From NCBI RefSeq assembly GCF_003334335.1, contig NZ_QOWQ01000098.1: a stretch of 1,853 nt of DNA; one strand, written 5' to 3'. How positions within the stretch are numbered: the stretch's first letter is position 1; each line of letters begins with the position of its first letter. Below the pieces are notes generated by a model. The model saw only the letters and a list, made by a program, of their open reading frames with translations. It was not told the DNA's origin and did not search any database. Below, piece by piece: positions 1-1,853 of this stretch. This DNA comes from Escherichia coli (GTDB lineage: Bacteria > Pseudomonadota > Gammaproteobacteria > Enterobacterales > Enterobacteriaceae). The position numbers and the translations under genes were made by a program.

Positions 1-631
1 GTGGTCCGGGTGGTCCGGCCTCTCCACGTGGGCCGGTGTCACCTTTCGGCCCCGGCGGTCCGCCCGGGTCACCTTTATCGCCCTTCGGTCCCTGTGGACC
101 TGTTTCTCCCCGTTCTCCCTTTGGCCCCGGCTCACCTTTTGGTCCGACCGCCCCCGTTGCCCCGGCTGGTCCCTGTGCCCCTGTGGCACCCTGTGGACCT
201 GTGTCCCCCTTCTCGCCCGCCGGTCCCCGGGCATTCTCTGCCCGTTTCTTCGCTTCCTCTGCACTCGCCGCCGACGCTTCAGCACGCTTCAGGATTTCCG
301 CTGCCACCGCTTCCAGCTCTGCAAGCGCTTTCGGGTAATACTGCGCCTCATCCTGTTCCATCAGAAATTTATTCAGCGTTCCCGGCTCAGAATCCGCCTT
401 CACCAGAATGTCACCCACATACGACGGGGCGTACCCTTCCGTGTTCAGCGTCACCCGGTACCACCCCGGCTCCACATCAAAACTGTAACTGCCGGTTTCC
501 CCCGGCTGCCCCTGCGCCACCGTGGTGACTATCACTGTCTCTGTGGTGCGTCGCGCTTTCAGCTCTATGGTGCATCCCGGCACCGGCTTCCCGGTGCCGT
601 CCTTCAGCACGCCCGATATTCTGACTGTCAT
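1..631 (-). CDS. stf: Side tail fibre protein, Stf-like N-terminal domain followed by collagen-like Gly-X-Y repeats; partial, 3' end runs off the window start
   Basis: The minus-strand frame (plus-strand triplets starting at position 2) is open from the ATG at 629-631 to the window edge; I checked every plus triplet in that frame for tta/cta/tca and found none. GGGAGA lies 5 nt upstream of the ATG. The translation [28 protein letters not shown]... matches, from memory, the N-terminus of lambda Stf ([17 protein letters not shown]...). Residues ~136-210 are Gly-X-Y triplets ([55 protein letters not shown]...). It is absent from the supplied ORF track, probably because it has no in-window stop. 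Confidence 0.8.
2..226 (-). repeat. Collagen-like Gly-X-Y triplet-repeat coding region within the stf-like gene
   Basis: Nineteen consecutive G-X-Y triplets from residue 136 (plus ~226) are followed by a 1-residue register shift and then more triplets to the window edge. Very GC-rich DNA (hand count 45/60 G+C over 1-60). A 14-bp exact direct repeat CCCTGTGGACCTGT occurs at 90-103 and 189-202. The proline-rich plus-strand ORFs 1..528 and 36..338 are the antisense shadow of these Gly/Pro codons. Confidence 0.8.
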
Positions 632-644: not shown

Positions 645-677
645 AAAAAAAACCGCAGTACCGGTTACCCGGTCTGC
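645..677 (-). terminator. Intrinsic-terminator-like hairpin plus T8 tract between J and stf, on the coding (minus) strand
   Basis: The minus strand reads GCAGACCGG-GTAA-CCGGTACTGC (9-bp GC-rich stem with a 1-nt bulge and a 4-nt loop; plus coordinates 655-677), then GG, then TTTTTTTT (plus-strand A8 at 645-652). The T-run ends 13 nt before the stf ATG. Pairing was done by hand; no free energy was computed. Confidence 0.45.
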
Positions 678-713
678 GATCAGGGGTATAAATTGTGACT
701 GGCTGGTGTTAAA

Positions 714-815: not shown

Positions 816-1853
816 TCACGATGCGGTATCAAAATCGTCTGTATAGGATTTCAGGTAAAACAGAACCGGGTCCGGGATCCGAATTTGACTCGTATCATGA
901 AGTATTGAACCACCCATGTAAAAAAGCACACCTGCTTCATACCTGAATGTAATTTCAACCCGCGCATCACCCTGTCCGGCAGGAATACCCCATGAGCCTG
1001 ACGCACTTCCGCCAACATCAGAATATACCGGCTCATATCTGCTGGCGTTTTTGGAAATCTGGACCTCCCGCTCCCCGGTTTTGACTTTGCCTGACCTGGC
1101 ATGAACGACAACTTTGTCATTTATCTTCATGATGAATTCACCTCTGGAAAAGGAATACGCCATAAGCATAAGCTTGCGATCAAACGGCATGTTGTCTTTC
1201 AGCAAAATCATTTTCTGAAAAGTCAGCTGGTTCTGAGTCATTACGCCCTGCCCCATATCAACCGTGTATCCCTTGACGATATCACCAATGATTCGGTCAG
1301 CGCTCATCGTTCCATTAATGGTGCAGTCTTCCGCAATCGTCACGTTATTCAGCGTACCGGAACTGGCACTGATATTCCCGCTGATATCGGCATTACGGGC
1401 CGTCAGCCTGCCGTCCGGCGTCAGGGAGAATGCCGGGGGATTGCCGCCGCTGGTAATGGTGGGGGCGGTGAGCGTCTTTATCAGCGCCTCATTGATAAAC
1501 GTCTGTCCCCCCTGCGTGACCAGTGCGGGTGTGGTATCACCATTCTCCGGATTAATGAATGCCACGCGGTCCGCTGCCAGCAGTATCTGGCTCTGCATCC
1601 CGTCAGGGGTGTTCTCAATACCGGCACCGATACCGGCAATATAGCGACGACCATCCTGCATCTGCTGTAGCTTCACCGCCCACATGCTGTTCAGGTCATT
1701 ATTTGTGTCCGTCTGCACACGCTGGATTTGCTGTATGGTGGCGTTCTGGTCCTCCAGCGTTTTACTGACCGTCTGCGTGATTTCATTGCGGGTTTCTGTG
1801 ATGGTGGTCTGCATTTCCGCCATCTCGTCCTTCAGCTGACTGTTGTCAATCTC
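816..1853 (-). CDS. J: Host specificity protein J (tail tip / central tail fibre), C-terminal portion; partial, 5' end lies beyond the window end
   Basis: The ORF track gives 816..1823 minus (335 aa) with the TGA stop at 816-818. The same frame stays open from 1824 to 1853 (…EIDNSQLKDE before the listed M), so the M at 1821-1823 is internal and not the true start. The translation contains MWAVKLQQMQDG, YIAGIGAGIENTPDGMQSQILLAADR, LTAPTITSGGNPPAFSLTPDG and NVTIAEDCTINGT, which I recognise as the conserved C-terminal third of lambda gpJ. The last ~151 aa diverge (see findings). Confidence 0.9.
   Translation of the reverse strand, partial: EIDNSQLKDEMAEMQTTITETRNEITQTVSKTLEDQNATIQQIQRVQTDTNNDLNSMWAVKLQQMQDGRRYIAGIGAGIENTPDGMQSQILLAADRVAFINPENGDTTPALVTQGGQTFINEALIKTLTAPTITSGGNPPAFSLTPDGRLTARNADISGNISASSGTLNNVTIAEDCTINGTMSADRIIGDIVKGYTVDMGQGVMTQNQLTFQKMILLKDNMPFDRKLMLMAYSFSRGEFIMKINDKVVVHARSGKVKTGEREVQISKNASRYEPVYSDVGGSASGSWGIPAGQGDARVEITFRYEAGVLFYMGGSILHDTSQIRIPDPVLFYLKSYTDDFDTAS

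Follow-up and report, generated by a model that had tools for sequence, protein, structure and literature searches.

Does the single-residue slip in the Gly-X-Y register of this collagen-like repeat represent a lesion of the DNA sequence or a property of the protein? The repeat lies in a 1,853-nt stretch of Escherichia coli DNA (the window), in which every gene is on the minus strand. The 5' part of a side tail fibre gene occupies positions 1-631, beginning at an ATG at 631-629 and running off the window after 210 codons. Its product consists of an N-terminal domain (PfN, residues 1-134; 230-631) and the visible part of a first collagen domain (Col1, G136-P210; 2-226), which comprises 19 triplets, one residue, and 5 2/3 triplets. 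A first-pass annotation had placed a single-residue break after 19 triplets, at residue ~193, and translation of positions 631-2 of the minus strand agrees: 19 uninterrupted triplets (G136-P192) are followed by P193, and the register is back at G194. Likewise, the cggcgg at 53-58, which reads CCGCCG on the minus strand, corresponds exactly to the codons of P192 (58-56) and P193 (55-53). The naming of Pro as the extra residue was arbitrary, since an equivalent reading of the same sequence fits equally well. In the GnG nomenclature, where G3G denotes a one-residue insertion, the break is a G3G interruption, G190-(G-P-P)-G194, with 18 full triplets before it and 20 after it in the full-length reference described below, and it can equally be written as G0G (G190-G191; codons 64-62 and 61-59). 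Comparison across the family identifies this Gly-Gly doublet, and not the Pro-Pro, as the landmark.

Previous work has described a conserved interruption in the EPclP proteins (Ghosh et al. 2012, PLoS One 7:e37872; PMC3368898), and the motif in the window, G187-D-P-G-G-P-P-G194 (GGTGACCCGGGCGGACCGCCGGGG; 50-73, minus strand), fits the published consensus exactly. The interruption, then, is a family signature already on record for this well-known class of prophage tail fibre. In Table 3 of the same paper (PMC3368898), ORF-401 of P-EibA is listed as EPclC with collagen lengths of 117 and 75, and the other interrupted collagen domains in its tables have lengths of 157, 190, 106, 118, and 322 aa, all of which are 1 mod 3, as one extra residue requires. 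We attribute the length of 117 to a 3-nt difference in the P-EibA record (AF151091; our locus L083, ~2990-3000), which lacks a CCG present in the window (~7-9) and in a modern genome. The deletion changes GPPGPQ to GPRPQ and creates a second break in the Gly-X-Y register, which is found neither in the window nor in modern genomes; it could be a real variant or a record error.

The first-pass annotation had put a 3-nt insertion or a sequencing artefact on an equal footing as the source of the extra residue. Such an origin, whether by misreading, misassembly, or a private slippage that duplicated CCG, draws on the facts that CCGCCG is a tandem codon duplicate in GC-rich repetitive DNA prone to slippage and compression errors, and that the CCG missing from AF151091 is a comparable 3-nt difference nearby. 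However, many independent complete genomes contain the identical sequence, as do sequenced phages. Among the matches listed, at least 15 complete E. coli genomes, each assembled independently, carry positions 1-300 with 100% identity, and the number at 99% identity or more is 40. At full length, the window is 99-99.7% identical to lambdoid prophages in ~20 complete E. coli genomes, and phages PhiR12_2 and PhiR12_5 also match all of it at 99-99.7% identity. Codon spelling argues in the same direction. In 82 related loci, G-D-P-G-G-P-(P/Q)-G is encoded by at least eight different 24-nt spellings (e.g., GGAGATCCAGGAGGACCTCCGGGA and GGGGACCCGGGTGGTCCTCAGGGG), and in most of them the Pro-Pro or Pro-Gln codons (among them CCT CCG, CCA CAG, and CCT CCC) are not a tandem repeat, so that slippage of one repeated codon does not describe them, and the amino acids have been kept through synonymous change.

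Comparison with homologues, which had been proposed as a check, was run on the 120 closest protein homologues, and the interruption recurs in 62 of them as a Gly-Gly junction, at which one run ends on Gly and the next Gly starts a new run. Identical genomes, recurrence in homologues, and codon diversity, together with the published description of the motif (PMC3368898), rule out an artefact or a private insertion, to which we assign a negligible probability. Annotators should neither 'correct' the interruption as an error of sequencing nor mark it as a lesion prone to frameshifts; beyond correct annotation, the feature is of little consequence.

Nor is the interruption a chance irregularity: when short breaks (at most 8 residues) separating two Gly-X-Y runs were counted in the 120 homologues, 62 of 64 were the same Gly-Gly junction. 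One of the other two is a Gly-to-Ser change within the same motif (GDPGSPPG), and the second is a distinct six-residue break (GERGPAVPQGAKG). The core changes that we saw are limited to GETGG in two proteins and GDPGSPPG in one. The position of the junction varies: 9, 17, 18, 26, or 27 triplets precede it, and one viral locus has 28 of them. Many members of the family function with no interruption at all: an internal break is absent from 56 of the 120 homologues, several of which are fragments and some of which end their collagen domain in G-E-P-G-G-P; the EPclA-like forms in this set have uninterrupted collagen runs.

To place the interruption in its protein, we determined the identity of the fibre. 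Pfam assigned residues 1-134 of the fibre ORF to PF08400, 'Prophage tail fibre N-terminal' (E = 3e-43; all 134 model positions), followed by the collagen family PF01391, and genomes that are 99-100% identical carry the RefSeq label 'prophage tail fiber N-terminal domain-containing protein'. PfN is 53% identical to residues 3-129 of lambda orf-401 (window-protein residues 2-128, BLASTP), and a PDB sequence search matched it to the tail fiber protein 9e7m, the Ur-lambda StfN collar (E = 1.3e-28); queries for the PDB search, the lambda BLASTP, and the full-length Pfam analysis lacked the initial Met, with residue numbers one lower. By homology, PfN would form the collar by which the fibre is anchored on the tail. 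Because the collagen begins at residue 136, directly after PfN, the window protein has no PCoil.

Beyond residue 210, the window protein's own C-terminus lies off the window, and a 99.7% identical genome (L001) served as the full-length reference. Its complete fibre gene product has 496 residues, in the order PfN (1-134), Col1 (G136 to ~V253), Pf2 (PF03406, E = 8e-16), a short helical stretch, Col2, and a C-terminal domain. Col1 of L001 consists of 19 triplets, one residue, and 20 triplets, with the GG motif as its sole interruption, and Col2 consists of 31 uninterrupted triplets. Pfam reported four PF01391 matches in this protein, and the split falls exactly between the two glycines of the motif. 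The C-terminal domain of L001 has no Pfam match, and PfC (PF06820) is absent both from the L001 protein and from the precomputed domains of the 100% identical protein P0001.

The window protein thus has features by which EPclP proteins are recognised, namely PF08400, PF01391, and a place in a prophage tail cluster downstream of J, and it has those of the EPclC group, namely Pf2 between two collagen domains (as seen in L001) and a C-terminal region that is not PfC-like (L001 and P0001). We consider it very probable, with the structural mechanism discussed below taken in, that this is an ORF-401-like, EPclC-type fibre of a P-EibA-type lambdoid prophage and that its interruption is a genuine, selected family signature.

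The closest named relative is ORF-401 of P-EibA (AAF63232.1), which shares the order PfN, Col, Pf2, Col and the sequence of the motif region with the window protein; positions 10-658 of the window are 99.4% identical to P-EibA orf-401 DNA (AF151091). The C-terminal domain of ORF-401, however, differs from that of L001, the best full-length match. EPclB (Z1483/ECs1228 of the Stx2 phages 933W and Sp5) and EPclD (Stx2-86_gp21) also join PfN to collagen, and their first or long Col has the same single interruption (157, 190, and 322 aa). In contrast to the window protein, in which collagen directly follows PfN, they contain a PCoil coiled-coil together with PfC or other C-terminal domains. The GG signature helps to recognise a subfamily of prophage side tail fibres that is common in Shiga-toxin and Eib prophages. 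It is not general to PfN fibres: among the best 150 representatives (at 50% identity) in a search with PfN only, 25 have collagen runs, and the GG junction occurs only in the closest subfamily, in which Col directly follows PfN.

Our analysis adds two observations to those of Ghosh et al. The first is that the motif sits within a conserved block of ~20 residues bracketed by Lys-Gly-Asp/Glu triplets. In 34 distinct contexts, column composition gave the consensus (E/P)-K-G-(E/D)-(K/R)-G-D-P-G-G-P-(P/Q)-G-P-K-G-D-T-G-P, which in the window extends from K183 to residue 198 (38-85, minus strand). The window protein has Lys-Gly-Asp at K183 and K186 on the N-terminal side of the doublet and at K196 on the C-terminal side. 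In 42 distinct interrupted domains, the frequency of K-G-D/E was 81% and 76% at the two Gly positions preceding the doublet and 71% at the second Gly position following it, compared to 17% elsewhere in the same domains. Since the 42 domains are homologous, this excess shows that a single block has been conserved; it does not represent separate enrichment events. The pattern fits one reported for collagens in general: KGE and KGD salt-bridge triplets are enriched around collagen interruptions, where they slow unfolding and raise kinetic stability (PMC11923368). The second observation is that a sister subfamily has G-E-P-G-G-P as the last residues of its collagen domain, adjoining the Pf2 repeat (GEKGEKGEPGGPDATTAQKGIVQLSS).

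This second observation bears on whether the doublet is simply a neutral seam, at which two collagen modules were joined and which has since been passively inherited with no structural role. One module would end in ...G-D/E-P-G, and the next would start with GP(P/Q)GPKGDTG..., like a domain start after PfN. In favour of a seam, the sister subfamily ends its collagen with the same G-E-P-G-G-P, P0017 and P0082 open their collagen domain with exactly the sequence that follows GG, the start of the window protein's own collagen domain resembles that sequence, and the number of triplets varies freely on each side, as expected of shuffled modules. Based on these domain ends and domain starts, the interruption may have originated as such a seam. 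A neutral scar, however, could be erased by any one-codon deletion, and triplet number changes constantly in these domains, yet among the close homologues examined we found no precise one-codon removal of the extra residue. In the close homologues that do not have the motif (P0017, P0019, P0040, P0041, and P0043), the entire block is gone or has been replaced. Furthermore, the amino acids of the motif are maintained through synonymous change and the charged flanking triplets are maintained with them. We thus judge passive inheritance of a neutral seam to be unlikely, and a seam origin and a present structural role are compatible.

The five motif-less homologues have an identical PfN and large in-frame deletions or replacements in Col1; P0017, for instance, lacks exactly 55 residues (G136-G190), with R135 joined to G191. 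These changes indicate that the collagen repeats are actively reshuffled by recombination with the reading frame kept. In the 34 contexts, upstream and downstream blocks re-assort, and the differences start several triplets away from GG. We considered GG as a preferred recombination breakpoint and, given where these differences begin, found no evidence for it.

Conservation over ~20 residues is more than a bare register shift needs, and we therefore also weighed whether the block is a recognition or processing site, bound or cleaved by a phage or host protein, for example as a docking site in fibre assembly or as a protease target. Just downstream of the fibre gene, the matching genome encodes a DUF4376 protein, presumably at the place where lambda has its tail-fibre assembly gene. 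However, K-G-D/E triplets stabilise triple helices generally, and the conserved flanks consist of exactly these triplets; a fixed docking site is unlikely because the distance of the motif from PfN and from Pf2 varies widely. We regard a recognition site as very improbable.

How, then, might a selected register shift be accommodated in the fibre? The related EPclA has been shown by experiment to trimerise and to form a collagen triple helix; this protein, the one examined by biophysical methods, is uninterrupted. In the cryo-EM description of the Ur-lambda side tail fibre Stf (orf-401 + orf-314), 12 copies of StfN (residues 1-94) form a collar on the tail. Four trimeric fibres project from this collar, and each consists of a proximal rod (102-393), a hinge (394-422) of ~107-134 degrees, and a distal domain. 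Stf has a homologous PfN, is 56% identical to Pf2 over 52 residues, and is encoded at the same position downstream of J. Pf2 of the window protein family aligns (BLASTP) to lambda orf-401 at ~354-390, the last part of the proximal rod, immediately ahead of the hinge. Unlike the window protein, lambda builds its proximal rod from an alpha-helical coiled coil rich in alanine and not from collagen, so lambda Stf has neither Gly-X-Y repeats nor an interruption of this kind.

By analogy with these proteins, we propose that the window fibre protein forms a homotrimer, in which a Col1 triple helix would serve as the proximal rod and stand in for the proximal coiled coil of lambda, with a length of roughly 33 nm. 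At the GG doublet, each of the three chains would shift its Gly phase by one residue. As the two adjacent glycines lie between prolines, either Gly could pack at the helix axis at minimal steric cost, and the helix would consequently be loosened only locally. The K-G-D/E triplets on both sides could form interchain salt bridges that hold the helix and re-nucleate it across the break. Plausibly, the rod would then be loosened locally at the GG site or would flex slightly there, as a secondary point of movement. The kink or flexibility that the first-pass annotation supposed is thus a reasonable expectation from what is generally known of collagen. The main joint of the fibre is expected after Pf2 and not at GG, and given the large hinge just after Pf2 in the Ur-lambda homologue, a hinge role for GG is not needed for jointed fibres.

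A structural role for the GG interruption has, in our estimate, somewhat less than an even chance. The more specific proposal, that the ~20-residue block is a selected, salt-bridge-clamped one-residue register shift acting as a minor joint or folding checkpoint, with G-(D/E)-P-G-G-P serving also as a collagen C-terminal cap, is offered tentatively, as a possibility on the doubtful side. PDB sequence searches returned no solved structure with the GG motif; the matches were generic collagens, 9e7m, and the phage Mu fibre S, which matched the Pf2 region, and HMMER placed a gap across GG in every printed PDB alignment.

Interruptions in other collagens provide a comparison. The G1G and G4G interruptions of type IV collagen and those of the G3G class, like the motif in the window, break the Gly-every-third rule within a regular repeat, and natural collagen interruptions are likewise flanked by KGD/KGE. 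Unlike the collagen classes, the window motif has Gly itself at the inserted position, with Pro on both sides, in what is probably an unhydroxylated homotrimer. If the idea of a clamped Gly-Gly joint is correct, the motif would be a small model for collagen interruptions and for bacterial collagen design that extends known ideas, and it would offer a compact natural model of an unhydroxylated homotrimeric triple helix that tolerates a G3G insertion.

The remainder of the window contains the 3' part of the tail tip/host specificity gene J (816-1853, minus strand), assigned from its ORF and the gpJ annotation in matching genomes and phages. J lies directly upstream of the fibre gene, and in the annotation of L001 and of the PhiR12_2 locus (L002), gpJ, tail assembly, and minor tail genes precede the fibre gene as a prophage tail gene cluster. 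Between J and the fibre gene is a 184-nt spacer (632-815). In P-EibA the order is J-lom-orf401, as in lambda (AF151091; L083 3623-4440), whereas the window prophage lacks lom and has the spacer instead.

The spacer contains a terminator-like element (645-681, minus strand), composed of a hairpin at 681-651 and a run of eight T residues at 652-645. Folding of the hairpin gave 13 pairs with one bulge and a dG of -26.3 kcal/mol (z = -3.9), and 0 of 200 shuffled sequences was equally stable. The similarity of P-EibA to the window ends at 658, inside this hairpin. Directly after the hairpin and T run, ahead of the fibre ATG at 631, is a GGAG Shine-Dalgarno sequence (642-638); the terminator-like element ends ~3 nt ahead of GGAG and 13 nt ahead of the ATG. 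The hairpin could leave the fibre gene expressed at a lower level than J, unless antitermination in the late operon carries transcription past it. An Rfam scan of the window gave no match.

Long plus-strand ORFs (36-338 and 1-528) lie opposite the collagen repeat. They are by-products of GC-rich triplet periodicity, and the matching records list no annotated feature under the match for either of them.

On the 3' side of the fibre gene, L001 (E. coli G1/2; 1835-4121) contains a DUF4376 gene and a gene with a YadA C-terminal domain (Eib-type), followed by a hypothetical gene and then a gene for an S6-family, autotransporter-like peptidase. The counterparts of the DUF4376 and YadA-C-terminal genes in P-EibA are ORF-191A and eibA, which encodes an immunoglobulin-binding trimeric autotransporter. 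From these downstream genes in L001 and P-EibA, we infer that the window comes from a prophage that carries virulence cargo. Insertion sequences are also found in this region. In PhiR12_2 (L002 592-2873), an IS21-like pair, a transposase and its ATP-binding helper, is inserted just 3' of the fibre gene and splits ORFs noted in the record as 'tail fibers', and in strain SW070917 the region that matches the window is split by an IS4 element.
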